Shown piece after piece: positions 7,235 through 30,900 of a stretch of 64,000 bases of DNA. The number at the start of each line of letters is the position of its first letter. Position 1 is the stretch's first letter. The notes beneath the pieces were generated by a model that was not told where the DNA came from, did no database searches, and saw only the letters and a list, made by a program, of their open reading frames with translations. The DNA is from TPA_inf: Saccharomyces. Its lineage: Eukaryota. Made by a program: the position numbers and the translations under genes. The stretch lies in assembly GCA_000146045.2 (NCBI GenBank), contig BK006935.2, positions 1 to 64,000 of the forward strand, in the 5' to 3' direction.

Positions 7235-9016
7235 TTATTTTTCATCAGATACTGATAAGGTTTCAACGTCTTTTGACGTTGGCTTTTCCACACCATGTTT
7301 AGAGTTATAAAGCACAATACCGTTCTTCTTGGCATTGTTCCTTTCATCACGTTTATAGAAGTAGAGTACAACAAAAGTCCAAATGGAGAGACAAAAAGCA
7401 GAACATGCAGTGAAAGTAAACCCCTTTAAATACCTGGGAGCTTCTTCTGTTTTCCAAACCAAAACACTTATCCATGCGGTAGATGATTGAGCCATAATAT
7501 TCATTGTAACTAAAGTAATAGCTCTAGTTTGAGCATCTCGGCGACAAATATCGTTTTGCCAAGAGTATAAAACAGGAGCCATAGCCCAACCAAAACATTG
7601 CAGCATAAATGCAAACCATTTGGCTCCTTCTGCGACGTCCCAAGCGGCTAATATGGAGTTACCAATGATATTGAAAACCTGAGTAAAAATAATCGCAAAC
7701 CAACGAGAGTGTAATTTATCTGCAATAATACCAGTAAGCATCAAATAAACCATACCTAAACCCGGAGTAATCATGGATAACTGATTGAGCTTAGGAATAG
7801 AGTATCTTTTCAAAGATTTCAACCATAGTAGGTATGCCCCAGATGAAACATTACTGTCATTCCAACAGAAAATATTCCATAAAGTTAAAATGTATATTTT
7901 CCAATCACTGAAAATTGTTTTCCACAGTTTAATATCGAATACTTTTGTTTCAAAATCACTTTTACCTGTTTGGTTTTCTTTTAATCTTTTCCTCGCCAAC
8001 CTAATTTCATCATCAGTTAAGAAAATAGAATAACAGTTGTATGGGTCACCTGGCAGGGAGTAAAATCCAATAAGGCCCACTACGACAGACACAATAGCGT
8101 CAATAATAAAGTTCCATCTCCATCCCTCTAAACCATTTACACCATTTAACGATGAATATACGGCTGACTGGATCCCACCAGCGGATAGAATACCGATATA
8201 CTGGCCCAAATAGTAAAAAGCAGAACGACGCACCATTTCATCATGTTTGTAAAAGGAACCAAACAAATATTGGTATGCCAAATAACTTGGCGCTTCAAAA
8301 GCCCCAATGAAAAACCTAATTGCTTTCAAGTGTGGTACAGAATTGACATATGCAGCACCAACGGTTAAAAGCGACCAACATAAGTCGAGGCTTGGTAAAA
8401 CATAGTTTAATGGGAGCTTGTTCAGGTAAATCAAAAATGGCAATTGAAATATAATATTACCAACTGTGTACATTACTTGAGTATGCACCAAATCATTACC
8501 TTGAAAGCCTAAATCTTCCTTCATTCCCGAAACGTAAGCGTTGTTTATATTAACCGTATCCAGATATTTCACCCAATAAGCAATACAAGAATAAAAGGCT
8601 AAAAGGACATCCAATTTAATTAATAATTTTTTTTCTTTGAAAGAGGTACCCTGTTTGAACCAACTATACCATTTATTGTGAGATCTTTCCTTTTCATTGA
8701 TCCGATACTCTTGTTCATCGAAAAATCTCCACCATGGCCTATCGGCTTCATCTCTATATTCATAACTTCTAGTAACGTTCACATTGTCTTTATGTTCACT
8801 ATAGCTACTAGTCTCAAAATGTAGTTGATCTTTTTCACTTGTAGTCGTGATGAAATTTTCAGCTGTTTCATGACTCTGGATACTGTTGGAGATAGTGACA
8901 ATTTCTGTTGAATTTAAGTCATCTGGCAGGTCTTCCACCTGCCGCTTTACTGGAATAAAACCCCATTTTAGTCTTTTGTAAGGATCTACAATAATCTCTT
9001 TAACAATTGAATACAT
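7235..9016 (-). CDS. SEO1: Major-facilitator-superfamily permease of the allantoate/Dal5 family, 593 aa
   Basis: A 593-aa ORF with a long hydrophilic N-terminus followed by multiple hydrophobic TM segments ([55 protein letters not shown]). It matches SEO1 from memory. Confidence 0.9.
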
Positions 9017-10090
9017 GTATGTTATTTATATATGCAGTAGTTCTCTTTGTAATTTTTTTTAACAAATAGAGAGTAAGATATGTAGCGAATGTCCATTCAT
9101 CATAACAGGTAAACTAGATGCTCTTTTATATAGTCTGGTTGTATAAATAATTTATATCCTCATCTAAACGCATGTCTCCGCTTGGTTTCTTATCTATTTG
9201 TGGAGGCACCCGTAGTACTGTGCTTTCGTATTTTTTTATTTATTTATTATTTGTAGCAGTTTTTTTCCAGTGACACAATCTTTACCATTACACAGTTTTT
9301 ACTATTTCTAATGATTACATTGGACCATCGGAAAACTGCGCTAACTTTGGATAACGCCACAGAACGTGATCTGACTATTGTAAAGGTGTCATTCGGTAAG
9401 GTAAACCTTCAAGGCGTCCACACCTTTAACCATATAACAGCGTAAACTCTTGTTAAAATACAGGGGTAAGACATTGGTGGATATTCAACAAGATCCGATA
9501 CCTCCAATTCCGATTTCTACAAATTGTGCTCTACATATTACTGCGATGCAATTATCCACACATAAAATCGATGCCTTTAGAAAAAGACATAAAGCAGACG
9601 GCATTGTAGATATTTGACCAATTAGAATTGAATGAGATGAATATCTCACCAAGCTATTCGATATTATAGATAAAGTTTGTATCTTAGTTATGCATTGTGA
9701 GTTGGTTGCTCTACTCGCGGTTACCAGTCTCTTCTAAAAAATCTAAGGCCAATGGTATCCATGACATTTCTGCACTTTTTGTAATTGGTTTAGTTATGAA
9801 AGGAACGTCAAACCAAATGGTTTTTCAGATAAGAAATTGACAGTATCTGAGAATTTGCTATCAAAGCTCAGAGGATTTACATATTTTAACGTAATTAAAA
9901 CATTTTTATGTTCGATATATTAGCAAATAGCGTATTAATATACAGCTGTTGCGCTCATGGTAAAATTTAGCGATATACTTTGCATCTTGGCTGCAAAGAA
10001 GAATGAATCGGATATACTATTTTTGATCATAATGACGGACATCATGATATAATAACGTTATACGGATAACTTTATTTCAAAAGCACCATC

Positions 10091-10399
10091 ATGTTATCTC
10101 TTGTAAAAAGAAGTATTCTTCATTCAATACCAATTACTCGTCACATTCTTCCAATCCAATTAATATTGGTTAAAATGAACCATGTGCAAATCAGAAACAT
10201 AAAATTATATCACTTTATTTCATATGGTTTCATGCTTACAAAGCTTACTGTCTTTCTCTTTAACTTATTTTTCTACAGGCTACGAATTCTTTGCAGGCTT
10301 ACTTTACTCATATTATCATTACCTGTACAAATATATATTAAAGAAATCCAAACAAAAATGCTTGAAAAGCATACAGCTTCCGATACATCATGTATATAG
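10091..10399 (+). CDS. Dubious 102-aa ORF
   Basis: An AT-rich ORF of low complexity with no recognisable domain. I recall it is annotated as dubious (YAL066W). Probably not protein-coding. Confidence 0.15.
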   Translation: MLSLVKRSILHSIPITRHILPIQLILVKMNHVQIRNIKLYHFISYGFMLTKLTVFLFNLFFYRLRILCRLTLLILSLPVQIYIKEIQTKMLEKHTASDTSCI

Positions 10400-11564
10400 A
10401 AAATCACAGTACAAAAATTTTGAATTTATGTATAACCGTTTCGCCTGATATATGTAAGAGCTCTTGATTGTCGGAATAGTTCGGGAATTCTGGGTGGAAC
10501 TAGTAGCTGGAGATGCGTTCTAAAGGATCTAAAATCAGACTCACCCCAAAAACCAAAATTTTGATATTCAACTTTAGTATTAGCCAGTCTTAAAATGATT
10601 TTTTGCCAAGAAAGCCGAAGTTTAACGAGCGTTTTAAAATATGCACAAGTCCATTAATTAAATTTGATCACAGTGATTACCAATTTTGTTGAAAGCAGTA
10701 ATTTGTGACGTCCGTTTTTGGCACAAGTAAAAAATATTTGTTTTGAAGTCTAGTTACAAGAAGCTACTGAAAACACAGGGCTGGATATAGATGTTTATAA
10801 GCTCCTCCCATGGTCTAAGAGTTTCTCCAAACGCCTAATGTATGCAATTTGTTAAATAAAAATGAAGAATAGATGCATAAACAAGCGTCATTAAAGTTCT
10901 TATCATTATTCCATGTAGAAATGACCTGCAAGTACGAGCTGGTTATGCGAAACTGAGCTTAACAACATAGTTTTCTTTTCCATTGGCTTGGATATAAATT
11001 TTTCGCTGAGAAACTTCTCTGCATTTTTTAAGCATTAAGCGTACATAACATAAAGTCACTGAGATATTAGAGGTTATAAAAAAAGACTACGTGGGTGTTT
11101 ACCTAAGATTTTCACAACTTGTTTATTAATTGGATAAATAGTATTTTTCTTGGCATTTACAAACTTTATGTTTTTAGGTGTATTTGCAGTTCCATTAAGG
11201 GAAATAAGTCATAAGCTTTTTTGGAAAACAGATTTTTTGCCCCGCTTAACCTGAAATTGATATTAAAAGAATGTGTGAATGGCCATTAACTAACAAGAGA
11301 ATTAATAATGTTAAAACACAGATACCTCGAAACAAACTCTATGTAAACACTTATTTTATTGTGGTAATATTTTTTGATAACAACACATCTGAAACAAAAT
11401 AATGCAAAGCCGAATAGTTAGGCTAAAAATGTACTCTTAGACATTTAAAAAGGTTTATGAATCCTATGGTATTTAATATATTAAAGAACGAAGTAAATGG
11501 GAAAAAATGTGTAAACACTATAAGCGTGATGATAGAATTATTAATATAAGATGATGCCGTGCGT

Positions 11565-14149
11565 TTACCATACGATTGCCAGCAATACGGTGGAAATAAA
11601 AACACTTATGCCATTATTGGTCAACAGACCATTGGCAATACCAACGTAGGTTGAGATTTCTAAAGAGGCAGTACTAGATCCTATTATGCTACTTGCTGGT
11701 GTGCTACGAGGCTGTTGCGACATAGTACTTAACCCGGAAGTTATTAGACTCTTGGTGTTGCCAGTTTCGGATACAGAAACAACACTACTGCTGTGACCAA
11801 TCACATCGGTCGCGGAAGCCGTCTGTGTTTCAGCATGATTGAATCTTGAAATTGAAGAGGTGACTACTGTTTTCGTCTCAGCAGCTCCAGTACTGGTAGT
11901 TGTCTCAGCAGCTCCAGTATTGGTTGTTGTCTCACTGGTAGCACTGTTCATTTTAGAGCTGACAGACTCTTCATTCGTAGTCTGTGGCCTCCATGTTGGA
12001 TAGACCGTAACAACATCATTCACAGTAGCCGTGGCCGTCGAAACAATGGCAGGTGAAGCAGTTTCGGAACACACACCAGATTCGCAGGAAGTAACAGTAA
12101 CTAGCGTAGTTTGTTGCCTCGATTCTGTGGTGGAAATAGGACACCATGTCGTGTATTCTGTGGTAACGCCGTTAATAGTAGCAGTGCTTATAGATACAAT
12201 GGCTGGAGAAGCAGTCTTAGAGCATACGTCAGATTCACAAGAAGAAATTGTAACTACTGTGGTTTGCTCTGTTGTCCCCTTGGTTTGCTTTGTTGTCTCC
12301 GTAGTTTGCTTTGTTATCTCTGTGGTAGAAATAGGGCACCATGTGGTATACTCTGTTGTGGCACCGCTAACAGTAACGGTGGCCGTGGAAACAATTGCAG
12401 AGGAGATGGATTCAGTGCACACATGAGATTCGCAGGATGTCACGGTAACCAAAGTGGTTTGTTCGCTCGTTTTTGTAGTGGTAGCAGGTGGTAATGAAGA
12501 AGCAGTTTCCTGGCTTGTTGTTGTACTGATAACAGGTGGTAATGATGAAGTAATTTCCTGACTTGCTGTCGCACTGGTAACAGGTGGTAATGAAGAAGTA
12601 ATTTCCTGACTTGTTGTTGTACTGGTAACAGGTGGTAATGATGAAGTAATTTCCTGACTTGTTGTTGTACTGGTAACAGGTGGTAATGAAGAAGTAATTT
12701 CCTGACTTGTTGTTGCACTGGTAACAGGTGGTAATGATGAAGTAATTTCCTGACTTGTTGTTGTACTGGTAACAGGTGGTAATGATGAAGCAGTTTCCTG
12801 GCTTGTTGTTGCAGTGGTAATAGGTGGTAATGATGAAGACGAATATGTAGACTTTGGTGATTCAGAAGAGATAGAAGAGGAAGAAGAGACAGAACTAGCT
12901 GAACTAGTTTCGCTCTCAGAAGAACCAGAGGTGGAACTACTGGTTGGAATGACGGATGATTTAAATGATTCAGAGAATATAGAAGTGGAGGTTGTTGTAG
13001 AAGAAATGACAGGGGAAGAAATGAATGAAGAAGAAATGACTGGAGAAGAAGTGACTAGAGAAGAAGTGACTGAGGAAGAAATGACTAGAGAAGAAGTGTC
13101 TGAGGAAGAAATTACTGAGGAGGAAATCACAGAAGTTCCATTGCTAGGATAGAATGGGGTAATAATTGGATGCTAAGACGTGATAGAGCTGGTTATTTGT
13201 TCTGAAGAAGATGATGACAAACTGGATGAGGTGGCAGTGGTTGGACTTTTAGCAACAATAACGGTTTCGTCAGTTGGTTGACCATTAGTGCCAGTGACAG
13301 TAGTCATCTCAGTAGAAGTCGAAGTGGTAGTTGCGATGGTGCTAGTAGTATGTTTTGAAGGATCAGGGATAGTACAATTGGGCTGTTAGGTCATCGTCAA
13401 AAGAGTAAACGTGCCCTGCAAAATCATCGCTAACAGTAGTAACATCAGGCAATTCCACGCTAACTGGCAGTGTATGCCAAGAAACAGCGTTTGAGTAGAC
13501 AATCTTCATTGGACAGTAGAATCCAGCATACATATACACAGTCCCTGCAATGTTATCGGGCAATCTTCCTTGCCATGGCTTGATACCATTAATCGTAAAG
13601 TTTGTGGATGTAATTGGAGGTTGCTCTTGTGCACAGCATCCGAATGCAACGTCGCCACCGACTGATAGAATTGCAGAGTCATCGACCTTAGCAAACCTGA
13701 ACGTGTAAGAACTTGTTTGTGGTGGTAAAAAGTAACCTGTCATTTCTAGAGTAGCGTTTTTTGGGATAGTATAGAAACCAAGTAAATCAGTACTCCAATA
13801 GGTCTTTCCTGGCTATTTTGAACATTCACTATGACCTCTGCATCCCCAGTTTCCATAAGCATCTGATTGAGCACATTTAAAAGTTCCTGAAGAGATAACA
13901 CAAGAAAGATCGTAGTCAATTGAGAAATCCGTCTGTCCGCCAACGGAACCTAATTCCAATTCGAGGCATATCCAGAAGTCATATATTGCGGGTAGGAATA
14001 CGTTGTTGAATTCAGTAATGAGTACAAAAGTTGACATTCATCCCATTTTTCCTCGGGTCCGTTGGCAAGCATGCTTGTGTACTTCCTGAAACAACATTGG
14101 ACGTGGCCAGGTAGGTGAAGAGTGCCAAAAATAAATAGTGATGAGGCAT
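11565..14149 (-). pseudogene. Degenerate FLO-family flocculin gene (FLO9/FLO1 paralog) broken by frameshifts and a stop
   Basis: The 11565..13130 ORF (521 aa) is near-identical to the C-terminal third of FLO9, including the [39 protein letters not shown] modules and the hydrophobic GPI-type tail. The fragment 13363..13743 matches the FLO9 PA14 region ([30 protein letters not shown]...GIKPW...VYMYAGFY) and runs into a TGA at a point where FLO9 stays open. Bases 13131-13362 hold a single 135-nt FLO repeat unit in another frame. The reverse complement of 14149..14015 encodes [41 protein letters not shown], a FLO1-like signal peptide followed by a stop. The fragments are annotated as separate small ORFs (YAL065C, YAL064C-A). 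Confidence 0.85.
12443..12836. repeat. Tandem 48-nt (16-aa, [16 protein letters not shown]) coding repeat, about 8 copies
   Basis: The unit acaggtggtaatgatgaagtaatttcctgacttgttgttgtactggta repeats head-to-tail. The antisense ORF 12440..12718 reads [16 protein letters not shown] repeatedly, confirming the period. The equivalent FLO9 stretch near 24925-25010 has only about 2 copies. Confidence 0.85.
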
Positions 14150-14689
14150 TTCTTGGTTCGTCAATCAGGTATGGGTATATTAAACAATAACTTTAAGCCA
14201 TGCTGTTAATGATGAAAATTCTGATGCTGGTCTCTTCATATGTCATTGTTTTGGGAACTGTCTTTTTTCGATCAGATGTATGCGCAACGATTTGTTTAGC
14301 GTAGTGATGTTCCCGCGTAGTACTTAGGAAATTTTGGTATCGAAACGTCCCTACAACACTTTTTGTCGCTGATATCTGCACATGTGAGTAACGCAGATTC
14401 CATTGCATTATTACCTTCCCCTTCCCAGAAACGATTTATTACGACTCAACAAGTTCAAGAAAAAAATTAAAAAGGTTACAACCGCATTTTGCGTTTAGGT
14501 GCAGCGAGACTTACCTTGATGCAGTCCTAAAGGGTCCTGCAGCGGTTGTAACGAATCCTATTTGCTTTTGTGCATTCCTAAACGGGCTGAAGTAAAAGTC
14601 TTGAGGAACTCCAGGAGAAGATACGATAAGCTCCGAAGTGCCAAATTTTATTATCAAAAAAAAATATTTGTACGAGCGGAAAAGGATTA

Positions 14690-14940
14690 TACTCTTCCTC
14701 TTTTGCTTCATCACAAGAGGATTATTTTGACGTCGTCTGTTGTACTACTTCTTTATCGGTGTGCGCAGGAAAAGAAAGAAAAAGGAAGGAAAAATAGATG
14801 TCAAAAATCGATGTCAAAAAATCTCGTGAGACCTCCGGAATTTTGACGCTGCAAGTCAATCTACGGGAAAGAAGAAATTTTTTAAACCTAATGCAAAATA
14901 AGCTTTTCTTGGAAAATAAGATTTTCGGCAATAAAAGGTA
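14690..14940. repeat. Copy A of an unannotated diverged ~230-bp dispersed direct repeat
   Basis: It shares ordered blocks with 20880-21095: cttttgcttcatcacaag, tttatcgg, aaaaggaaggaaaaat, tgcaagtcaatctacgggaaagaagaaatttt, aacctaatgcaaaataag.ttttc. Both copies are in the same orientation. Confidence 0.6.
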
Positions 14941-17900
14941 AATGCAGCCAAAAATCAAAATACTTCAGAAGAAGTCGTAGCGAGGACTGCTAAGGGGAAG
15001 CGGATTTGAAGATCCTTTCCAGAACAAGAAGGAGCCGAAAGCTGTCAGGAACTGTTCCTGATTTTTTAGGAAAACAATTAATAGGTATCTCGTCTAGAGT
15101 AGTATCTCGAGCTTCCAGAAGTTGCAGATAATCAAAATCATTGTTTTATCCCTTTTTTTAGATTACAGCTTAGAAGAGTAGAGAGCAAGTTTACTGAAAC
15201 GGTTCCTTGTTTACAATAATATTCCTAACAAACTTTACGAATTAGGATGCAGCATGATTTTTTATATTGCTTCACTTCCTAAAGTATGAATTTTTATCCG
15301 TAGTCGCAAACAAAACAGCTACTGGAAATCTGCAGCTTGTTAAAAACCGGTAGTTTCCGAATACTCCTCGTCCTTGAGTTGTATACCGTTAAACTTCCTA
15401 GGGTGTCATGTGTCTGGCCCAATTGGCCCACAAAATCTGGTCCTATTGACGGTTTTCTTTTGATTTTCAGCATCTTCCTCTAAGAAGGACAGAAAATTAT
15501 GTAATATATGGGAGAAACGGCCTCCCAACTGCTAAGTGTCCCCGGCAGCACGAGTAAGCAAAATTCAGGCAAACTATTGCATTAAGAAGCCGTACATAAT
15601 TCAGCGTGATATGATGAAATTTTGTTAATTGCAAATTTTAGTACGATTTGGTTGTTAGTGTGTGTTTATGCAAGTAATTATTGAACCCTAAGTAGTTACT
15701 GTCTTCTTTTGCTGTAATTCGTGGATTCACGGCCCTCCAGCAACATGGATTGAAAGGTTCTTTAAAGTTTTCAATCCGTAAAGTTCTGAAATGTATTTTA
15801 ATCATGTCAATAATTTTACTGGTGAGTAGCATTTATGACCAAAAGCGTACTTAAATTAGCAGCAAAAAAATTTTTAATAACGAAACTATAAGGAAAATAC
15901 GAGGTACTGATTATGAGAGTCCCCGTTTCTCATTTTTGAGACATGATCTGAACAAGGCTGAAAACAGCAATCTTTTTCGATAACTTTTGCAAAAATTTCA
16001 AACATTGTTGTTTGAATGCAGCCAATTTTTATAGGGTACAGAGCTTAATGCTTTACATGTGCTTTATTTTCGGTACTTTCCTTAAAGTGTCTACATTATC
16101 TCTCAGGACTTGAATGTCTTCGGCTGAATTACTATAAAATCTTGAGTTTTCTCTGAAGTTTAATCCTAAGACAATAGTGGTGAGTGATGTAGTTCACGTG
16201 TGTGCCACTGGTAATAATAGAGATAACTATCTCAGTTAAGTTTGAAAAGGTAAAAAATAGTTTAAGTAGTCATTTTTTGCGACGGTCATTCTTCTCTGAT
16301 GCACGTTCTTTAGACTACCTATAAACACCATTCTTACGGAATTATAATGGAAATAAAACATCAGTACGTGTTGCTGTCGGTGATAGAGGGGTAACAGAAC
16401 CTTAATTGAAAAATTAGCACAGTGCATAATTTATTAACATGATTGTTTTCTGTGGAAAATAAGAAATTCAGCACCAGTAAAAGACGAGAAATATAGGCAC
16501 ATAAATGCGCTCTTACTCGTATGTTCCAGGATGAAAATGTTTAGGGCATCAAGTATTGCCGAAAGGGCAATATGCTTTAACACCAGAAAATCCACTGTAT
16601 ACTCGTTACGGGTAAACAAAGCAAAACGCAGTGCGTGATAATGTTTCTAAAATCTCTGCACACTGTTGAAATGCGGCTCTGATACTTTAGCCCTTAGTAC
16701 CTGACGGTGCCTAAAATGAGGATAAGTATATGAGTTTACAACGAATATAATGCTTTTTACCTCATCATATAAAGAATAATATTAATTTAAAAGTAAAAAT
16801 TAGACCTAGGTGGTAATGAGGAATGTGTCCTAATGAATTTATGTAGTTGATGCTTTTGCAGCGTTTTTTTTTTTTTGTATTAATCAAAGTGCACTACGTG
16901 ACAAAAATAAAAAGTGGATGAAAACAAAAAAATCACAGATTTTCATAAAAATAACATGGTATTCTTAATCGTATATCGTAATGGATTGTCAAAAATAAAG
17001 AGAATATAGTCGGTTCAAACCACTTTGTACGTCTACAGAGTATAGTGTAGAAATTATAGTTAGGATTGTGACATCCCTTTTTCTTTAACATAATAAGTTT
17101 GCTTCAAATTAATTGATCAATTAGGATAATAACTCTCAACACCTTTATTATTTATGTTTAGAGAGTTTATGGTCAGATGGTGATTGGTATTGATACTTAT
17201 ACTTTTTTTCTCATTAGTATAATACGCTATATTCCATGTTTGAATAGATCTTATTTTTTGGCTGTCTAGATAATAAACATACCGTTTTTAACACACACAC
17301 ACCAATGAGTAGACGTTATTGCGACTGTATGCCCTTTAAGATATTCTGTTCAAAGAGATAAGGTATTTATTCGTTTTCTTGCAATTTCTTCTCATCTATC
17401 ATTATCATACCAGATTGAATCTTATTTTTTAATTTTTAGTCTATTTGATGACGGCTACTGAATCTTTACATTACTTGAGCTGAGAAGTAAAATTGCATTA
17501 TTCATATTAAACAAAAAAATCAATTTCCCATAAAGACAATAGCTCAACTTCATCACGTCCTTGGTTTTTACCGAGTACATATATTTGATGAATTCTGATT
17601 TGAAAATATCAATTTGTTCCTCTAGAATATTTCCACTCGCACATTCAAAAGCAGGTATTGGAACGCACAAGAAGCGATCGTCACCTTCCATTGGGGTTAG
17701 TAGCAGGATATATATTTCCATTCTATATTCCAGGTTCTCTTTCACAATTTTATTGAATGAAATACCTGAGCTACCAAATCAGTCTTAATAACACCATCTT
17801 TTACACCGGTACTACAACAAACCATACTGAGTCTGAAATTGGACTTCTGCAATGAAAAATTTAAGCCCTGATCTACGCATAATGCCCGCTATAAACCTTA

Positions 17901-20879
17901 TTTTTTATATGGGGGTCTGGCGCTTCGGGAAAAGAGAGGAAAACTTGTAACTCAATATATCTCGATACAACATTACGTTTTGTAAATTTATCACAAAAGC
18001 CAAATGATGATATCTCTCTTGCAAGTTATCGAACATTGATTGGTAATTTGTTTGAAAATTGTTAATTTATTGAATATTTCTTTTGCAAAAGAAATAGTCT
18101 CAGCGAAAGCTGGTTACAAAATTTACATCATGAGTTTACGGGATTTGTAAATACGCTTTTTGCATAAAAATACTTTGCCGTTTCCCACCCTTGCATATTC
18201 ACTTACTCCCCCCTTCATATACTCTATGTAATGATGATTAAGCTTTGGCCGCTAAGTCTCTCAATTAGTGTTGATTTTGGTTTTATTCATATGATTCTTC
18301 TTTAGTGAAGTATTGATCAATTACGTGAGTCAGCTTTTTGAAAACCCCATTTGGAAGGAATTAGGAAATTATTTTGCTTACTACGACCACTAATTTACCG
18401 CCATTTCTGGGCCTTTTTATTGACTATTTTGACCATGTGCTCGACTAGAAGAACGGCATCATAATCTGCTGGTAGAGTTAGTCTATAATGATTGTTGAAA
18501 ATAAAGGCATAAGAGATATTCCACCTAAAATTCAAGTTATTGACTTTATTATCAGGATCTTAGTATCCTTTTTTGGTAAGTCATATTCAATGAACTAGGT
18601 CTCGCAAACTTTTTGTTCGAAAAGCGGTAGTGCATAGTTATGCTAACTCTGGATATATGGCATAAACCGTACAACACTAGCCCATTTTTTTGGAAGTAGT
18701 GAGGGCAGCTAGACTGTATGATGAATATTCGCCTGCATACTGAGTTTTTTGGTCCTTTTTTTTATGTGGCTGGCCTTACGATATGATGCACAATTCATAA
18801 TTTGGAAGAAGGGCAGAACAATTGCATCTGTGCTTGGCTCTCAAGAACGGTGTTTGGTGCATCAAAAGTTTTCGACTGCTTATTTGGTCGGAAATATAAA
18901 AACTCGATCCTCTTATCTAAGCAGTATACATTCTTCTTTTTGAAATGAATGTACTCCGTAATATCTTCTTATTTGGCATTTTCATCCTTAACTTTTGCAT
19001 GGCTCTGAACTAGTCAGATAGTTGCCCTTTTCAGCAAACCTCTTATTATTGAAAGCATGGTGTACATCCGTTATACTATTATATTATAAGAAATTGGGAT
19101 GCCAATTTTTTTGCTTTTGTTTTGCCTGTTTTCCTTCTTTTCGCAAAAGTAATTGCAGATTTAATAGCAGGATATTATACCGTTGGTAAAACTTAAGGAT
19201 TTTATGAACAATAGCTTCAAGTACAGCATTCATAGAACCAACTACTAAGGATGAAACTAGTATGTTTTTGTCAAAATATTTTCTTGACCTTGCTGTAACA
19301 TCAAGATCTGTTTCTCTAAGATATTAAAGTTGAGTAAAAACAAAGCTGATATGAGAAAAATACGTAATTGCTCCACATAATACGTGGGTCAGACATAAAG
19401 GTAGAATACTTGATACAGAAGAGATTATTCGGTACTCTTGATGGCGTGCTTGAACTGGTGCCTCTTAACAACCGGTAATATAGTCAGATGAGTCACTACG
19501 AGTGTGTGTAGTAGCAAGTGTTTTACCTACGTGGCAGTAAGAGTAGCTCTATGGTTGTGTAATAGTGGTGCTTATTCCTAATGCTCTGAAGTCTGAAGCG
19601 GTACAGTTGGTCTGGTCTATATCATGGTCAAAGGAGCAAACATATCTTCTGAAGTGACCGCAAATAGTACTATGATGTGGTTGGCAATATAACTTAAAAG
19701 GAAATAACCACAAGGAATTGCACCCATGTACACAGTTTTTCCCGGAAATTGGGAAACCAGTACGAACATATATCAATTACTTTTACATTATCTTGATTGG
19801 AAAACTGGCACAATTGACTGTGACGTTAGTAGTATGTTGTTCTTCTCTACATCAGTTAAATATACGTGTCAACATCAACTAATCAACTTTCCCCCGTTTA
19901 CCACATTGAAGCTGGGTGTGGAAGATTTATTTGAAGAAACTAAAACGTACCCTGTCATTTCCTGAGTCCCCTTTCAACTTAGTGTGAAAGCCGAACAATT
20001 ATAATCCTCGGTAGACAACAGATTTATTGTACTAAAGTTACTCTTCCTGTTATCTTCCTTGATTTTACTGTTATAGCAATGACCCACCGCAATCAGGAGA
20101 GCCGCCGTATGGAATAGCATACCAAGTCATAAAATCGTCAACCTATTAACGGGGTTCAGGTTCTTTTTCAGCGTAGTAGCCCTTTAACAAGCGCTGACAA
20201 AGTTGACACTCAGAGAAAATTCAGGATTTATTGTAATCCAGCTACTCATCCTTAGATCCGCTTGCAGGCATGGTTTTTTTCACCTTGAGAGGCTATTTTG
20301 GGTAAGCCAGGAAGGCTGAAAAATCCCAAAAGGACACAGTAATAAGAAATTGTTGTTGTTGTATGATGCATTTAGAACTCAAAAGACGAGTTTCTGAAAA
20401 TGCTTACAATACTCCATAGGTAACATGATTTTTTTATTAAAAAAGTATACTGTTCCTTTGGGTAAAAATTATGCAACCCTTGAGTGTCCGATGAAGATAA
20501 GACTACGAAACAATTTGCGGTAAATTTTTTCTGCTATTGACATTTACACATGCTCCAATCCATTACCCTTTCCATTCTCGTAATAAAACCTCGAACTGTT
20601 ATTTCATATTTACATCTAGACGGGTATCGGCCTCAACAACTCCAAACAAAAGTAAATAGAAAAGAGCCAGACCTATCGCACCGGGTAGAGCCAGAAAATA
20701 TTTTAAACTATAGTTGACGTATTCTACGGCTGTTGTTTAGGACAATACTTTTTCCTTCACAGGCTTCGAATTACGCACATGCAGAACTCCTGTAGAAACC
20801 ACGAAGAAAAGTTTAATTAACTTTCAAATGCCAGAACTAAAGATTGATGAAACAGTTATACGAATTTAAGGGGAACTTG

Positions 20880-21095
20880 CTTTTTCCTTTTGCTTCATCA
20901 TAAGCGCAATATTCGCAGCGGTGGCGTCGCGTCTTACCATTTATCGGCACATTTTTCCGAAAAGGAAGGAAAATGGCGGTGTCAAACGGTCTGGTGTGAC
21001 ATCTAGAAGTTCGGCATTGCAAGTTAATCTACGGGAAAAAGAAAATTTTCTTATAACCCTAATGTATAATAAGGTTTTCGGAGAAAGCAACTCAC
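20880..21095. repeat. Copy B of the same diverged dispersed direct repeat
   Basis: Blocks cttttgcttcatcataag (20888), tttatcgg (20940), aaaaggaaggaaaat (20961), tgcaagttaatctacgggaaaaagaaaatttt (21018) and aaccctaatgtataataaggttttc (21055) appear in the same order and spacing as in 14690-14940, allowing for small indels. Confidence 0.6.
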
Positions 21096-21565
21096 GGGGA
21101 ACAATTGGTTAGAAGAGACCGTAGAAGCGCCCCACTAACCTGGAGTTGATTATCGAGGATCTTTCTCAGAAAAGCAGCTAATAAATGAGCACAGTACTCA
21201 AAAATTACTCATAGTATTATAATTACTTACTTAGTCAATATGGCTGCGCTTTTAAAATGAGTATCTTTTATTTTTTGACAAGGAAGAAAAAGATGCAAGC
21301 AAAGAGAAATTTACTAAGTACAAGCTCATTTCCAAAAATTCAGTTTGCCTGTAACAATGGGTAGCGATCTTCAACATATGGGATTATGCCTTGAATGAGA
21401 TTTTTGAACGTAGAGGAAAAAATCGCAGACAGGCTTTATTGTGCTGTTTGACATAGTATACTCAGCCGTTGTGGTGTTAATGAATACTATCGATGTGTAT
21501 ACAAACGTACTTCAAATAAGCAATGCGAATATACTGCAACTTTTCGGCCTTTGCAACGATTTGTA

Positions 21566-21850
21566 ATGAATCCTTTTGCATCGCTAGAAGGACAAGATAA
21601 TATTTCTTCTGTTTTTTTTTTACATATGCAACAATTTGAAAGTCAGGTCAAAGACAGATTCCGGTTCCCCATATTCAGATTGGAGAGAAAAACTTTTGGC
21701 AACTCATGTTACCAAGTCGAGACGCTTAAAGTTAAGTGTCGGCCAAGACACGCAAAATCTTGTAATCTTTTAACGCTGCTCTTCAAATCACGGACGCAAT
21801 CAGTACTTGTACCTAATTTTGGTTTTCTAATATTGAATAGCGAACCATAG
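21566..21850 (+). CDS. Small uncharacterised ORF (94 aa)
   Basis: Open frame 21551..21850. I recall an annotated small ORF (YAL064W) from the Met at 21566. No domain is recognisable and coding status is uncertain. Confidence 0.2.
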   Translation: MNPFASLEGQDNISSVFFLHMQQFESQVKDRFRFPIFRLERKTFGNSCYQVETLKVKCRPRHAKSCNLLTLLFKSRTQSVLVPNFGFLILNSEP

Positions 21851-22394
21851 GTCGAAAATTTAAGGCCACATAAATCCAGAGCCCGCAACTTGGATAGGTA
21901 TTTACTTGATTTTTAGTTTGCTTTCAATAGTGTCGTGAAATTATAAAGTACGCCGCATATATATCTTGATTAGTTAAAAATAGCAGTGTTCAATGATGAT
22001 TTGATAGGGTTCATAACTGGTACCAGCGTAGTACAATTACGATTATCCATGAACATAAAAGTGGTTTAAGTACTATATATCAGTGAAGCTTCAAAGTAAG
22101 CAAACGAGATACCAAGATCTTGTAGGACCACGATATATAAGAAGCCTAGTTCCGTTGTAGCATCACATAGAAGAGAGCGACAATGCCTCAGAAATTCTAC
22201 AGCAACAGAAAGCACAGTGAGTCATTAACTGTTGGAATAAGACTCAACTGCGAGCTATCGACTAGTACTTATATTACTAGTATATTATATACGGTGTGAA
22301 AAGACGACATGAAGATTGAGGAAATGGTCCCAAGATCTAATGGACACTGAAATGCAAAAGTTGATAATGTAACATGAAAATTAAGGACAGCATA

Positions 22395-22685
22395 TTAAAC
22401 AGAAGAGGAAATAATGGTATTTTTACATAGAGATATGAATTTCCCTTTTTCTTTGTTCCTATATCTCTGATAATAAGTTATAATATACTTTGTGCATCTT
22501 ATATCATGCCTTTTCAACAATGAAATATCAGCAGTTATCAAAGCATTCGCCAAATTTTTATTAATAAAACAAATGTCAGAAATATGGCCGGAATCTAATC
22601 TGAAAGTTAAAATAATTCTTACGATATTCTTATCATAAAACCAATGATTAATGTTTATGATGAGCAAAACTGTGCGAGGGCACAT
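22395..22685 (-). CDS. Small uncharacterised ORF (96 aa)
   Basis: An AT-rich 96-aa ORF with no recognisable domain, annotated I believe as YAL063C-A. Coding status is uncertain. Confidence 0.2.
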   Translation of the reverse strand: MCPRTVLLIININHWFYDKNIVRIILTFRLDSGHISDICFINKNLANALITADISLLKRHDIRCTKYIITYYQRYRNKEKGKFISLCKNTIISSSV

Positions 22686-23712
22686 ACATACAGTGGGACC
22701 TCATGAGATCCAGAAAAAAAGCAAAGGAAAGTTCGATCGAAACATTAGCTCTTAGATATTACAGACGTGAGGTATCTCTTCCTTGAAGAGAATCTGGCCC
22801 TGATCAAAAACTTTATTTTGATACTGTTCGAAAAGAGAAATAAGGACAACGTTCTAATTTATACAAATATAACCAGTAGGCTTTATCGTAAAATCCTCGA
22901 ACTTGCTTCTCATCACAGAAGTATAAAAAGTAAAGAGGTCAAGCAAGAAACGAATAACCACCAAATTTTTTTCAATTGAAAAGCGAAACGTAATGGAAAT
23001 TCACCTGCTTTGAATCGTTGTTGAATTCTTATCATCAGTCATTATTTTCCTCTTTTAAAGCTTAAGTCAACCGCATCTAAGTTTAACACTTCGTTCCCGT
23101 TTTGAAGTTTATCAAAATTCCAAAATACAGTAGTTAGGTGCTCGTGACAAACCTTTTTCCAAAGTGTCATTAGACTTCATGGAACTACTACACTTCTGGG
23201 GAACGAAAAGCTACCATTTGCTCATCATTGGATAATTTCTTTTTTTTTTTTTGATGCATCCAAACTTGGACCCCTTTTGAATGTCGAGTATGAAGTATCA
23301 ATTTTAGGGCAAGTAGTTTTACAATAATTTTGGTGCACTTTTACGTCTCTGCTGATATTTTTAATACTAGTGCAAAAGAATTCGAAATAAATATAAAAGA
23401 ACAAGGAGGATTAACATACTTTAAATAACTAATTATCACCATTATTTCAAGTTTCAAGTACTGCGTATGGCATGCACAGCAGATTTCTACTCAAAAACAT
23501 CCTAAGCGAACCACACTAGATCTTACGTTAGTACTGCTGAAAATGGCAATAATTGTTAAAGCAAAAATTGGCGATGGTTCATTAATTGCTAAACAAAATA
23601 GGGCATTTTTCCTCGTTAATGATAAGTACTCATACTTCTGTTTCTATAAGTGTTAGTTGTAACTTATGAAATATCGATTTAAATTCGAAGTGTTGTTTGC
23701 AGGATATAAATC

Positions 23713-23762
23713 AAAAAAAAAAAAAAAAAAAAAAAATTAAATAAATAAATAAAATAAATACA
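23713..23762. repeat. A24 homopolymer followed by an (AAAT)n-like tract
   Basis: aaaaaaaaaaaaaaaaaaaaaaaa at 23713-23736, then ttaaataaataaataaaataaataca. It lies about 240 bp downstream of the FLO9 stop codon. Confidence 0.9.
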
Positions 23763-23999: not shown

Positions 24000-26900
24000 T
24001 TAAATAATTGCCAGCAATAAGGACGCAATGAAGACACTTAAACCACTACCGGCCAGTAAGCTGTTGGCACTGCCAGCATACGTTGAAATTTCTAAAGAAG
24101 CTGTACTAGATCCTACCATGCTACTTGCTGGTGTGCTACGAGGCTGTTGCGACATAGTACTCAACCCGGAACTTGTTAGACTCTTGGTGTTGCCAGTTTC
24201 GGATACAGAAACAACACTACTGCTGTGACCAATCACATCGGTCGCGGAAGCCGTCTGTGTTTCAGCATGATTGAATCTTGAAATTGAAGAGGTGACTACT
24301 GTTTTCGTCTCAGCAGCTCCAGTACTGGTAGTTGTCTCAGCAGCTCCAGTATTGGTTGTTGTCTCACTGGTAGCACTGTTCATTTTAGAGCTGACAGACT
24401 GTTCATTCGTAGTCTGTGGCCTCCATGTAGAATAGACCGTAACAACATCATTCACAGTAGCCGTGGCCGTCGAAACAATGGCAGGTGAAGTAGTTTCGGA
24501 ACACACACCAGATCCGCAGGAAGTAACAGTAACTAGCGTAGTTTGTTGCTTCGATTCTGTGGTGGAAATAGGACACCATGTTGTGTATTCTGTGGTAACG
24601 CCATTAATAGTAGCAGTGCTTGTAGATACAATGGCTGGAGAAGCAGTCTTAGAGCATACGTCAGATTCACAAGAAGAAATTGTAACTACTGTGGTTTGTT
24701 TTGTTGTTTCTGTGGTTTGCTCTGTTGTCCCCTTGGTTTGCTTTGTTGTCTCCGTAGTTTGCTTTGTTATCTCTGTGGTAGAAATAGGGCACCATGTGGT
24801 ATACTCTGTTGTGGCACCGCTAACAGTAACGGTGGCCGTGGAAACAATCGCAGAGGAGATAGATTCAGTGCACACATGAGATTCGCAGGATGTCACGGTA
24901 ACCAAAGTGGTTTGTTCGCTCGTTTTTGTAGTGGTAACAGGTGGTAATGAAGAAGTAATTTCCTGACTTGTTGTTGCACTGGTAACAGGTGGTAATGATG
25001 AAGACGAATATGTAGACTTTGGTGATTCAGAAGAGATAGAAGAGGAAGAAGAGGCAGAACTAGCTGAACCCGTTTCGCTCTCAGAAGAACCAGAGGTGGA
25101 ACTACTGGTTGGAATGACGGATGATTTAGATGATTCAGAGAGTATAGAAGCGGAGGTTGTTGTAGAAGAAATGACAGGGGAAGAAATGAATGAAGAAGAA
25201 ATGACTGGAGAAGAAGTGACTAGAGAAGAAGTGACTGAGGAAGAAATGACTAGAGAAGAAGTGTCTGAGGAAGAAATTACTGAGGAGGAAATCACAGAAG
25301 TTCCATTGCTAGGATAGAATGGGGTAATAATTGGACGCGCAGACGTGATAAAGCTGGTGATTTGTCCTGAAGAAGATGACAAACTGGATGAGATGGCAGT
25401 AGTTGGAGTTTTGACAATAATGACAGTTTCATCAGTTGGTTGACCGTTGGTTCCAGTGATGGTGGTCATCTCAGTAGATGTAGAGGTGAAAGTACCGGTC
25501 CATGGCTCGGTTGTAGTTGTAACCAAACCTTCACTGGTTGGAGTTCTGATAACAATCACGGTTTCGTCAGTTGGTTGACCGTTAGTACCGGTGACGGTGG
25601 TCATCTCAGTGGATGTAGAGGTGAAAGTACCAGTCCATGGTTCAGTGGTGGTGCTGATTAGACCTTCACTAGTTGGAGTTCTGATGACAATGACGGTTTC
25701 GTCAGTTGGAACGCCGTTGGTACCGGTGACGGTGGTCATTTCAGTGGATGTAGAGGTAAAAGTGTCGTTCCATGGCTGAGTTGTAGTCATGGCAGTAGTG
25801 GCTGTTGTTGGTGTTCTGATGACAATGATGGTCTCATCAGTTGGCAAACCGTTGGTACCGGTGACGGTGGTGATTTCAGTGGATGTAGAGGTAAAAGTGT
25901 CGTTCCATGGCTGAGTTGTAGTCATGGCAGTAGTGGCTGTTGTTGGTGTTCTGATGACAATGATGGTTTCATCAGTTGGCAAACCGTTGGTACCGGTGAC
26001 GGTGGTCATTTCAGTGGATGTAGAGGTAAAAGTGTCGTTCCATGGCTGAGTTGTAGTTATGGCAGTAGTGGCTGTTGTTGGTGTTCTGATGACAATGATG
26101 GTTTCATCAGTTGGCAAACCGTTGGTACCGGTGACGGTGGTCATTTCAGTGGATGTAGAGGTAAAAGTGCTGTTCCATGGCTCAGTTGTAGTTATGGCAG
26201 TAGTGGCTGTTGTTGGTGTTCTGATGACAATGATGGTTTCATCAGTTGGCAAACCGTTGGTACCGGTGACGGTGGTCATTTCAGTGGATGTAGAGGTAAA
26301 AGTGTCGTTCCATGGCTGAGTTGTAGTCATGGCAGTAGTGGCTGTTGTTGGTGTTCTGATGACAATGATGGTCTCATCAGTTGGCAAACCATTGGTACCG
26401 GTGACGGTGGTGATTTCAGTGGATGTAGAGGTAAAAGTGTCGTTCCATGGCTGAGTTGTAGTCATGGCAGTAGTGGCTGTTGTTGGTGTTCTGATGACAA
26501 TGATGGTCTCATCAGTTGGCAAACCATTGGTACCGGTGACTGTGGTCAATTCGGTAGAAGTAGAGGTAAAAGTGTCGTTCCATGGCTGAGTTGTAGTCAT
26601 GGCAGTAGTGGCTGTTGTTGGTGTTCTGATGACAATGATGGTCTCATCAGTTGGCAAACCATTGGTACCGGTGACTGTGGTCAATTCGGTAGAAGTAGAG
26701 GTAAAAGTGTCGTTCCATGGCTGAGTTGTAGTCATGGCAGTAGTGGCTGTTGTTGGTGTTCTGATGACAATGATGGTCTCATCAGTTGGCAAACCATTGG
26801 TACCGGTGACTGTGGTCAATTCGGTAGAAGTAGAGGTAAAAGTGCTGTTCCATGGCTCAGTTGTAGTTATGGCAGTAGTGGCTGTTGTTGGTGTTCTGAT

Positions 26901-27968
26901 TACAATGATGGTTTCGTCAGTTCGTACACCATTGGTGCCAGTGACTGTGGTCAATTCGGTAGAAGTAGAGGTAAAAGTGCTGTTCCATGGCTCAGTTGTA
27001 GTTATGATGGTGCTAGCAGTTGTTGGAGTTCTGATGACAATGACGGTTTCGTCAGTTGGAACGCCGTTGGTACCGGTGACGGTGGTCATTTCAGTAGATG
27101 TAGAAGTGAAAGTACCGGTCCATGGTTCCGTTGTAGTTATGGTAGTACTGACAGTATAATTTGAAGGGTCTGGAATGGTACAGTTTGGCTGGCTTAGATT
27201 GTTGTCAAAAGTATATACGTACCCTTCAAAGTCATCACTAACGGTAGTGCCATCTGGTAGTGTCACACTAATTGGAAGTGTACCCCAGGCAACGGCATTT
27301 GAGTAAACAATCTTCATTGGATAATAGAAACCAGCATACATGTAGACAGTCCCTGTAATATTATCAGGGGGACTTCCATTCCATGGCTTGATACCATTGA
27401 TGGTGAAGTTAGTCGACGTGATGGGAGGTTGTTCTTGTGCACAACATTCGAACGCAATGCTACCACCGACTGATAGAATTGCAGAGTCGTCAACTGTAGC
27501 AAACTTGAATGTGTAAGAACCCGTCTGTGGTGGTAAAAAATAACCTGTCATTTCTAGGGTTACGTTTGTTGGGGTAGTATAGAAACCAAATAAATCAGTA
27601 CTCCAGTATGCAATTATTGGATTATTAGAACAAGCACCAATTCCTTTGCATCCCCAATTACCATATAAATCTTCTTGAGGACAAGGAAATGTGCCTGATG
27701 AACTAACACAAGGAATATTATAATCAATCGAGATATCAGTTTGTCCTCCGACAGAACCCAGTTTAGTTTTTGAGGCATATCCATAAGCCATATATGCTGC
27801 ATTCGAATATGTGGAGGAATCTCTCAATGAATACTGGTAAAAGTTTACATTCATACCATTCTTCCTTGAGTTTGCTGGCAGGCATGCCGCTGTAGTCGCA
27901 GAGACAACATTAGTTAATCCCAGCAATGTGACGATGGCTAGTAGTAAACAATAATGTGCCAGAGACAT
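24000..27968 (-). CDS. FLO9: Lectin-like cell-wall flocculin, GPI-anchored, 1322 aa from the Met at 27968 (the open frame extends to 28010)
   Basis: An N-terminal signal peptide ([24 protein letters not shown]) is followed by a PA14/Flo mannose-binding domain ([31 protein letters not shown]...[22 protein letters not shown]). Then come 13 tandem 45-aa Thr-rich repeats ([38 protein letters not shown]), a Ser/Thr-rich stalk with Cys-containing modules, and a C-terminal hydrophobic GPI-attachment tail ([14 protein letters not shown]). Confidence 0.93.
25400..27160. repeat. Array of 13 tandem 135-nt in-frame coding repeats inside FLO9
   Basis: A 135-bp periodicity holds across about 1.76 kb. Many adjacent units are nearly base-identical, for example 25786-25920 against 25921-26055. 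The antisense ORFs at 26059..26319 and 26734..27159 repeat for the same reason. Confidence 0.9.
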
Positions 27969-30900
27969 TTTTGGGGCTTTTATTGTACAATTGTTCTTTT
28001 TAAATTGCAATTTAAAGAGCGTACCTGTAAATAAGAAGGAAGAACGTTATGTTATTAATGGACTTTTAGTGTCATCGAATTTTATGTAATATATAAGAAG
28101 GTAGAATAATTTGGCAGGATAATGTGTTAGCAAAGGAGGAAATCGAATACCTTTAAAAGAGAAAAAATTTTTTAGCTGCTTAAATTTCTGTGTTATACCA
28201 CCCGATAGATTTTGAGTTATGCTTTCTAATTGATCTGACTGCGAACGTTTTCTTTATGCCATCTGAATTGTCAGGAACAAAGAAGAAAAAGAAAAGTTTT
28301 TAAAAAATCTGTGGTCGTGTGTGATGTACCTTTCCTTTACATGCATTAATGCGCTCTGAAATGTGGTACGATATCCTTACAGAGAATATATTTTCTGTAT
28401 ATCGTGCAATGTTGAATAACCTATGAAGGAAAGTACCCATCGCTCAAGGTAAGCATTCCAGGAGGGTCGCCAGAAACTTAAACTAGTTTTAGCGACAGAT
28501 CCGAAAATTGATAGAGACATTGAAAAAATCACTACTCCGTCCTTTTTAGTGCTTTCTCAATGCATAATTTTGGTGCACGACTAAAAAATTCTAGAACACT
28601 ATAGTTGCATTTTTTGGGCCGGAAGAAGAAAAACGCATGTAACTTTAATGTCAAATAAAGTTTTCACCTAGTAAGCGCGATACAAAAAAAACACAGAAAT
28701 AGCCATAGGAAAGTGAATTTTGTCAGCCGACTAAAATTAAGGTTAGCTTACAAAGCAGCAAAAAATTTGACATCGCACGGTATTCCCTGAAAAAGGAGCA
28801 GGCAGGTGCTGTATATTTTTTTCGGTTCCTGCCTCTTACATGGCGTCGGTGTATCTTAAATACTAAAGTGAGCTGACTACCCTTTTGAGTGCCCTATGTG
28901 ACCTCTGATCTCGAAAGTAAACAAGAGATACCTAATTTCACAGCCACTTTTTGTTGCGGACACTGACGGGATGTGTTGTGAATATTTTAAACCTTAAAAG
29001 TATTTATTGGTTAGTTATACTTAATTCTTATACGTCCTTTAAAACCAGTGTGCAGTAAGTCTGTCACACAAAAATATGATTGATGCATTTTCAAAAAATA
29101 ATGGCTTTGAGGTAATTCGTTCCACTTTTGAGACTTATTCACATGTCCCAGCTGGGTGCAATCAAAATATACCGGCATTTCAGCAAGGTAACTATATACG
29201 CTTTTTTTCTCATGGTTTTTGAAATCATACCTGCCAAGCTTGCTGCACTTGGAAGGCAACTCCGTTTTTCAGAGATTAGATCCTTTTTTTTTTGAAGAAA
29301 AGGCAGCCAAGTTACGTCATAGAGAAAACTCCCTAGAGCGCTGCAAACACTTGTTAGTTTGCAGCTTACTTCACGTGTGGCTGGAAAATTGAAAAGTTAC
29401 AATACGGTAAAAATACTTTGAAGACACTACACTATAACTGCTTGACCAAATTTTTACTCGTGAAAAATTTGTTCCAGCCGGTCTGTTACTGATATTAAGT
29501 TAAGGAATAGTAAACCGTATATTTTTCATCCACGTTTTTGTAGTTTATTTTCGGTTTACTAGCTATGCATTGATTGTCTATCAGAGCATATCAAGGTGGT
29601 TATGGAGGTGCTGATATTTAATCAATAAAATTATAGAAATTTTGAGAAAACAATAATGATTGTTTCTACAATGAAAATCAGTTCATGGAATAGTTGCCTT
29701 CGCACTACTTTTTCACCAGATTAATGGTGCATCAGAGCTTTCCCTTTTTGTCTTTTTCTTGTTTCCTTTTTCGATTGGTTTATCACGTAAGTTTCTTATG
29801 ACATAAGAAGAGGCAAGAAACGAAAAGGGAAATATTGCCTACTTTTTTCTTTTCGAACGTAAATAATGACGGGATTTTGGTGTCATTTTTTTTCGTCTGG
29901 ATTTTCTCAGAGAAGTACGTTTCGTCGCACAAGCTAAAATCATTGACAGGGCATGAGTTACGTCAATCTCTGGTCAATCCATGTCCAAAAAAATTTCTTG
30001 ATTTGTTCAAAGTTTTTGCATAGGCACATTAATTGGTTTAGCGAAGTATACATTCTGAAGAACATTTTTGGGTGTATTTTCCACATAGAAAATTCGATTT
30101 TTTTTTTTCAATGCACCACTTGTCGAGTATACGTTAACTTTAATGTATTGAAGATGCAAAAATGAAAAGCCTACTTGGCATATGGAATTACAATAAATGG
30201 TCAATTCCTGTTTAAGCTAGCAGCGGCACTGTCGGTGTAAATTTGGGTTTAAACTATTGTTTACTTACTTTGAGAAATTTATGTATCGCCTATATTTTTC
30301 AATAAGTGCGATATCTTTAGCTTTCCACAGAACCCCCCCTCAGGCTATGGACGTGCGGTTATATGATCTTCTAATAAAAATCTCTTAGACTACGGTTCAT
30401 GGAATACTTCTTGACTTCTTGGCGAAGGAAAGGCGCATAAATGTTGTGATCGAATGACCAGTAATACGTCGTTTGTTCTCTTGCTGAACAGCGAGGAAGA
30501 GATATTCATCCAAATGCATGAACGCAGAATCCTGTAAAAGTCGTAAAAATGTTAATCGCAATGTTGTAAAAACCGTCAAGGCATTTATCGTTCAAAATGG
30601 CGATCATTGTTACTACTAAACACTTACTGTTAAATTAAAAAGCTGATGTTGCGTAATCCATTGACCAATTCATAGGCAATGTATTTCAATGACGCACAAG
30701 ATTCATAACAAATTTTTTATTTACGATGTACCTGTACATTGTGCAGAAGGTCTTCAGAGTGAGTTTAAGCTAGGCTGTAAATATTTTAATGTTAAGATGA
30801 AATTTAAGTGAGCTGGTAATATCAAGTGAGGCATAATTTGTTATATGTAGCTGAACTTCAACTTTAAATAGAAAAATTACAACTAACAAGCACCGGATTG

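Follow-up and report, generated by a model that had tools for sequence, protein, structure and literature searches.

A control region of the FLO1-type adhesin family has been described for FLO1 itself, where a Flo8p-binding site, AAAACCTTATTCTACGGAAAACCTTATT, spans −751 to −724 (Kobayashi 1999, cited by Fichtner 2007, PMC2780560). At about −700 of the same gene, Cyc8-Tup1 has been placed by chromatin immunoprecipitation (ChIP), together with one nucleosome-free, DNase I-hypersensitive site of ~100 bp set in an array of positioned nucleosomes (Fleming 2014, PMC4316177). According to the literature, Cyc8-Tup1 at FLO1 organises repressive, deacetylated nucleosome arrays from this site, and Flo8p and Mss11p, together with Swi-Snf, overcome the repression. 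The first 64,000 nucleotides (nt) of Saccharomyces cerevisiae chromosome I (BK006935.2 of assembly GCA_000146045.2; hereafter the window) contain a pair of diverged direct repeats, copy A (14690–14940) and copy B (20880–21095), and these were compared with the FLO1 region. It is concluded, with a probability of roughly 0.78, that A and B are paralogues of one another and both represent the control module found upstream of FLO1-type adhesin genes. Going by its Flo8p motif and by the Cyc8-Tup1 peak at the matching place in FLO1, the repeat is equated with the region through which FLO1-type genes are both activated and repressed.

Copies A and B resemble the FLO1 region in how far they lie from a FLO start codon and which way they face, in carrying the motif AAAACCTTATT (a tandem pair in A, one exact unit in B) and in the order of the further blocks. 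The transcripts neighbouring them are, like FLO1, repressed by Tup1/Cyc8 and responsive to Mss11. They differ in serving a pseudogene and an erased relic instead of a working adhesin gene, and in sharing only ~47–55% identity with the FLO1 module over its core. The FLO11 promoter is comparable as a distant upstream adhesin element where Flo8p and a Tup1-linked repressor, Sfl1p, compete at a shared site (PMC2780560). FLO11 is, however, not a PA14-type gene of the FLO1 family, and a non-coding RNA toggle like its ICR1/PWR1 is not known for A or B; FLO1 repression, in addition, is reported to be independent of Sfl1p (PMC2780560). What is demonstrated for A and B is their homology, where they lie, which way they face and which motifs they contain, and the two repeats are additional, unannotated members of an already known regulatory module.

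An earlier note on this DNA had described five or more blocks shared by the two sites in the same order and orientation, with 70–80% identity and small indels. The listed blocks were all found at both sites: CTTTTGCTTCATCA at 14700 and 20887, TTTATCGG at 14752 and 20940, AAAAGGAAGGAAAA at 14780 and 20960, TGCAAGT at 14850 and 21018, AAC(C)TAATG at 14885 and 21055, and AATAAG.TTTT at 14897 and 21068. The identity range was also accurate, with blastn giving 75.7% over 111 columns (E value 2.6e-13) and a global alignment of the full intervals giving 163 identical positions among 204 aligned columns (80%), with a further 59 columns of gaps. In the comparison with shuffled sequence, which the note had named as the one that could refute the pair, the best local alignment (14804–14908 against 20970–21079) scored 86, far above dinucleotide-preserving shuffles (18.9 ± 2.5, maximum 29); the top score among unrelated real windows of 216 nt was 36. 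The global score was 22, with shuffles at −166 ± 17. A tandem duplication of 13 bp in copy A (AAAAATCGATGTC repeated 2.4 times, 14790–14820) makes up one of the indels and accounts for part of the length difference. Since the indels in the global alignment are mostly not multiples of three, no reading frame is kept across the two copies, and the doubt that had been cast on the small open reading frames (ORFs) overlapping them was justified. Seeds lying outside the repeat (13726/19941, offset 6215) suggest a duplication that extends beyond the repeat as reported. Of all module copies, A is most similar to B and B to A (72% identity), and they occupy equivalent points of two tandem FLO units, which bears out the suggestion of an old segmental duplication. 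A long terminal repeat (LTR) or solo delta was rejected as an identity, as the TG...CA ends are absent at both sites, in agreement with the earlier observation, and the copies in the DNA examined are tied to a fixed position before FLO genes except for one distal copy at FLO1.

To place the pair within the family, FLO loci were retrieved via their proteins, and the module comparison covers ten copies, with the intervals 14806–14933, 20979–21099 and 28581–28681 in the window and others from loci L004, L007, L008 and L009. The module is ~130–250 bp long and lies in fixed orientation 0.55–0.95 kb before the start codons of FLO1, FLO5, FLO9, FLO10 and the FLO gene on the left arm of chromosome VI (chrVI-L FLO), and is found likewise before all pseudogene copies. 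Blastn with A or B detected it at FLO5 (−602 to −704, E 2e-8), FLO1 (−690 to −764, E 3e-6) and chrVI-L FLO (−650 to −692, E ~1e-5), and multiple alignments brought in the modules of FLO10 and FLO9. The FLO9 module (28581–28681, minus strand) is more diverged; direct alignment of A or B with the FLO9 promoter scored no better than shuffles, and the match becomes clear only with a multi-copy profile. The idea that the repeat belongs to a family shared with other FLO loci, and the proposed check for further copies near FLO1, FLO5 and FLO10, were in this way borne out.

A leave-out profile was built from the upstream modules of the five intact genes only (FLO1, 5, 9, 10 and chrVI-L FLO) and run over the 64 kb with nhmmer. 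It recovered the core of copy A (14806–14933, minus strand) and copy B (20833–21081) with an E value of 2.4e-14 each, and the only other significant match was the module of FLO9, itself a training member; the similarity of A and B to intact modules was in this manner obtained in a non-circular test. With the full profile, the core of copy A was matched at E 5.4e-28. Profiles that included A and B were also applied to targets on which they had not been trained, and matched upstream of S. eubayanus FLO10 (−961 to −846, E 3.4e-15) and S. eubayanus chrVI-L FLO (−734 to −632, E 1.7e-5). In all, four FLO genes from S. eubayanus and S. uvarum were examined, and these two had the module. An extra copy of the module was found far upstream of FLO1, ~4.7 kb before its start codon (L008 5096–5384, E 1.5e-16); it is 71–73% identical to copy A, and the similarity reaches window position 15038.

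All S. cerevisiae copies of the module contain the motif AAAACCTTATT of the Flo8p site, oriented with the gene. Copy B carries the exact core at 21068–21078 (minus strand), and copy A carries two versions with one mismatch each, AAAAGCTTATT at 14897–14907 and AAAATCTTATT at 14915–14925 (minus strand), spaced 18 nt apart as in FLO1. In the FLO1 locus examined, both Flo8 units lie at −754 to −724, and FLO5, FLO9, FLO10 and chrVI-L FLO have one or two motifs each, that of FLO9 including AAAACTTTATT at 28654–28664 (−686 to −696 from the ATG at 27968). When reverse-complemented, the last of the blocks described earlier, aataag.ttttc, gives the published Flo8p-binding site, a match that the earlier note had overlooked. 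Read in gene orientation, the consensus of the ten copies consists of one or two AAAACCTTATT, CATTARRGTT, an A-run, the T-rich TTTCTTCTTTCC, TGCAGC, TTCnnGA(A) and TCACG..ATTATTT, so that conservation takes the form of short motif blocks separated by variable spacers. A candidate assignment of the heat shock element-like TTCnnGAA as an Sfl1p site was dropped, given the Sfl1p-independent repression of FLO1 and the presence of the complete motif in only five of the ten copies.

Copy A lies on the minus strand at −541 to −791 from the start codon (14149) of a FLO pseudogene (11565–14149, minus strand), whose annotated pieces are YAL065C and TDA8/YAL064C-A, with YAL064W-B antisense. By tblastn, FLO9 residues 3–313 and 990–1322 match this pseudogene, scattered over several frames. 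At the DNA level, the 3′ part, about a third of it, is 93% identical to FLO9 and the N-terminal part just 74%.

Copy B lies at an equivalent position relative to a gene of its own, of which a decayed FLO N-terminal (PA14/GLEYA-type) relic with stops and frameshifts was found at 19531–20356 (minus strand). The repeat spans about −524 to −739 from the former start at ~20356. The predicted start of the relic shows a signal-peptide-like stretch (20350–20288), followed by domain pieces at 19985–19857 and 19860–19531. Colinear tblastn matches to FLO9 cover amino acids (aa) 3–23 (20350–20288), 137–166 (19967–19878) and 173–278 (19860–19558), with E values of 9e-5 and 2e-5, and other flocculins matched at E ~3e-8 and ~30% aa identity, no paralogue being clearly closest. 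A hidden Markov model of FLO N-terminal domains matched 19531–19683 (E 1.4e-7) and 19857–19985 (E 0.024), again at colinear profile positions. Upstream position and fixed orientation were found directly for A, and for B on the strength of this weak relic. The relic is previously unrecognised, or at least unannotated: no prior description of it, or of conservation of the promoter across the family, was found in the literature searched. Yeast gene relics were reportedly surveyed by Lafontaine et al. in 2004. No further relics were found beside the distal FLO1 copy or upstream of FLO9, FLO5, FLO10 and chrVI-L FLO. The left arm of chromosome I carries an array of three tandem minus-strand FLO units, namely intact FLO9 (24000–27968), the relic and the YAL065C/TDA8 pseudogene. 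The earlier picture of two repeats bracketing an ORF-poor block has to be redrawn, as each repeat is the upstream control region of its own minus-strand FLO gene or pseudogene. The 6 kb separating them indeed hold no ORF of at least 100 aa, and the description as ORF-poor stands in that respect, but the decayed relic within them had been missed.

The same arrangement is found in two other subtelomeres, on the right arms of chromosomes I (chrI-R) and VIII (chrVIII-R). Window positions 13089–23458 are colinear with both loci at 94–96% identity, the relic included, and the A-type copy (96% identical) and B-type copy (97.8%) retain their order and spacing, the latter about 6.4 kb further upstream than the former. 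They are annotated as FLO pseudogenes, YAR061W/YAR062W on chrI-R and YHR213W on chrVIII-R, accompanied by the dubious ORFs YAR060C/YHR212C, and hold separate subtelomeric copies of the block seen on chrI-L. Because the pseudogene, the relic and both module copies are colinear in all three, the A/B duplication is older than the spread of the ~10-kb block, which was duplicated to the other two subtelomeres later. On chrI-R, a gene of 111 aa (L001 8610–8945, minus strand), presumably YAR060C/YHR212C, is called over the A-type copy; its chrI-L counterpart is a shorter, 94-aa ORF (14562–14846, plus strand).

It is plausible that A and B are still active. In tup1 mutants compared with wild type by RNA sequencing, log2 fold changes were 5.5 for YAR062W, 4.3 for YHR213W, 4.2 (~18-fold) for YAL064W and 3.1 for YAL064W-B, and among the intact genes 6.9 for FLO1, 5.6 for FLO9 and 4.2 for FLO5, with similar changes in cyc8 mutants (Lee et al., 2023, PMC10446238). 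For YAL064W, YAR062W and YHR213W together, the derepression in tup1 mutants amounts to 14- to 44-fold. YAL064W (21566–21850, plus strand; an exact match to NP_009337.2) is a small ORF that points away from copy B, which lies 470–690 bp upstream of it on the opposite strand. In a compilation of ChIP-exo data, YAL064W is among both the Tup1p and the Cyc8p peaks (Rossi 2021, compiled in PMC10446238). Overexpression of MSS11 raises YHR213W, YHR213W-A and YAL064W-B (PMC3276193). A and B themselves may still bind the Flo8p and Cyc8-Tup1 factors. If so, copy A would drive and repress transcription of the pseudogene, and copy B, whose gene is dead, would act on the divergent transcription of YAL064W. 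Two separate observations concern the same peak lists (PMC10446238, S2 Appendix): XUT_1F-4, a forward-strand non-coding transcript near the left end of chromosome I, is in both the Tup1p and the Cyc8p list, and FLO1 (YAR050W) and FLO9 (YAL063C) are absent from the parts of these lists covered here.

The degree of conservation was compared between the module and its surroundings. Between A and B, the module has a ratio of matches to length of 0.68, against a null of 0.51 ± 0.02 (z-score 7.6), and the flanking promoter DNA has z-scores of 0.5 and 1.1 and the dead coding sequence 3.4. A module kept at this level amid flanks at background favours constraint outlasting the gene, and the module can be described as a conserved island amid saturated DNA, much as the earlier suggestion of a conserved non-coding element had it. 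A doubtful extension of the same idea is that copy B, and perhaps the distal FLO1 copy, has outlived its gene and is selectively kept as a site of Cyc8-Tup1 recruitment and nucleosome organisation, governing divergent YAL064W or non-coding transcription, or helping to establish the repressed chromatin domain around FLO9. Should this be true, the ten-way footprint of TTCnnGA(A), TGCAGC and TCACG..ATT beside the Flo8 sites would pinpoint the binding place of the Cyc8-Tup1 recruiter.

Several observations weigh against the assignment of A and B to the FLO control module, or against their activity. The relic that gives copy B its position is weak, with ~30% aa identity to every paralogue, and hmmscan of its joined conceptual translation returned no Pfam families even at E 10. 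The Pfam silence is attributed to the decay of the sequence, which is for this reason described as a relic and not as a domain-bearing pseudogene. The Ser/Thr-rich repeats and C-terminus of its gene were absent from 14940–19530 by tblastn with FLO9, no signal of GC skew or Ser/Thr composition was seen there, and two of the six reading frames of this interval, when scanned with Pfam, gave nothing meaningful. Profiles including A and B detected no module at S. eubayanus FLO1 or at one S. uvarum FLO gene. The recruiter of Cyc8-Tup1 to FLO1 is unidentified according to PMC4316177 and a second paper, and with FLO1 repression reported as independent of Sfl1p, the repression step is not assignable to one motif. 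The ChIP-exo peaks are placed by assigned feature and not by the coordinates of A or B, and since the three paralogous blocks are ~96% identical, reads and probes in the expression and ChIP data may cross-map. Finally, among the chrI-L, chrI-R and chrVIII-R blocks, module mismatches (2.3–2.8%) were not significantly fewer than those elsewhere (3.8%, P ~0.3, an underpowered comparison), so these blocks offer no direct evidence for present-day selection, and the evidence for constraint drawn from the alignments is mixed.

These last two points are also what speaks for the strongest of the alternatives, namely that A and B are homologous to the FLO module but are now functionless fossils, their similarity being left over from past selection and their neighbours responding through other elements or by cross-mapping. 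The excess conservation of the module among the three recent blocks is not significant, and the expression and ChIP signals belong to features instead of coordinates. Equal neutral decay is nevertheless hard to reconcile with z-scores of 3.4 for the relic coding sequence, 0.5 for the adjacent promoter and 7.6 for the module, and YAL064W, the neighbour of copy B, is both derepressed ~18-fold in tup1 and assigned Tup1p and Cyc8p peaks. The fossil explanation is regarded as possible, though distinctly less probable than that of A and B as copies of the FLO control module.

An improbable alternative is that short-tract gene conversion, well after the tandem duplication, transferred ~250 bp from one copy to the other or brought it in from a different FLO promoter, which would account for the island of similarity without selection. 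FLO loci do exchange sequence, as the 93% and 74% identities of the two parts of the pseudogene with FLO9 illustrate, and the coding sequences of FLO1, FLO5 and FLO9 are 81–84% identical, against 44–52% for their modules. Among the modules, A and the distal FLO1 copy share 71% identity, as do FLO1 and FLO10, the latter being the closest to FLO1. FLO coding regions appear from these comparisons to have been homogenised while the promoters retained older histories. Any conversion between A and B would have to be old, because they are only 72–80% identical. Moreover, the same sub-blocks are conserved in FLO1, 5, 9, 10 and S. eubayanus, and such shared sub-blocks are the signature of binding-site constraint and not of a uniformly identical copied tract.

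It is very improbable that A and B are what is left of a mobile element (a solo LTR or the like), or that they represent the gene of a structured non-coding RNA or of a small protein, for although ORFs overlap both copies (14562–14846, 14722–14958, 20837–21022 and 20921–21112) and a 111-aa gene is called over the A-type copy on chrI-R, the indels keep no frame, conservation is confined to short motif blocks with variable spacers, further copies in the DNA examined sit at a fixed pre-FLO position bar the one ~4.7 kb upstream of FLO1, no tRNA was found, and Rfam at the gathering threshold found nothing in 9000–32000.

With A and B taken as copies of the FLO control module, ~7.8 kb of unannotated reference chromosome I is explained by a wrecked tandem FLO gene with a surviving upstream switch. 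The Flo8/Cyc8-Tup1 control region known from FLO1 is then family-wide, covering FLO1, 5, 9, 10, chrVI-L FLO, their dead relatives and two S. eubayanus FLO genes. Its conserved sub-blocks are concrete candidates for binding of the DNA-binding partner of Cyc8-Tup1 at FLO1, and the orphan copies are natural tests of how the module acts without its gene. Signals attributed to YAL064W, YAR060C/YHR212C and the pseudogene fragments are probably read-outs of the modules and not proof of genes.

Further observations concern recombination among these loci. The pseudogene at 11565–14149 is a mosaic when compared with FLO9 (24007–27911), with a switch in identity near 13230–13330, and window positions 9001–12646 match the 3′ end of FLO1 and the DNA downstream of it at 95.8% identity (L008 11658–15303). 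The mosaic and the FLO1-like 3′ flank point, on sequence grounds, to gene conversion or recombination among FLO loci. In some other S. cerevisiae strains (L010 and L004), the block that usually follows YHR213W/YAR062W continues directly from a FLO gene situated at the FLO5 or the chrVI-L position, and UniRef holds a "FLO1/YAR062W fusion protein". It seems that recombination between a FLO gene and the pseudogene deletes the intervening ~10 kb, including both module copies, in some strains.

As for the remaining genes of the window, the protein encoded by SEO1 (7235–9016, minus strand) is identical to that of S288C, Tda8p (13363–13743, minus strand) is an exact protein match within the pseudogene, and GDH3 (31567–32940) encodes the exact S288C protein. 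FLO9 (minus strand, with its ATG at 27968) is intact, and a protein search with its N-terminal region returned Saccharomyces flocculins as the sole matches. Just 3′ of its stop codon, at 23706–23760, lies an A-rich low-complexity tract (A46-like, period 9–13).

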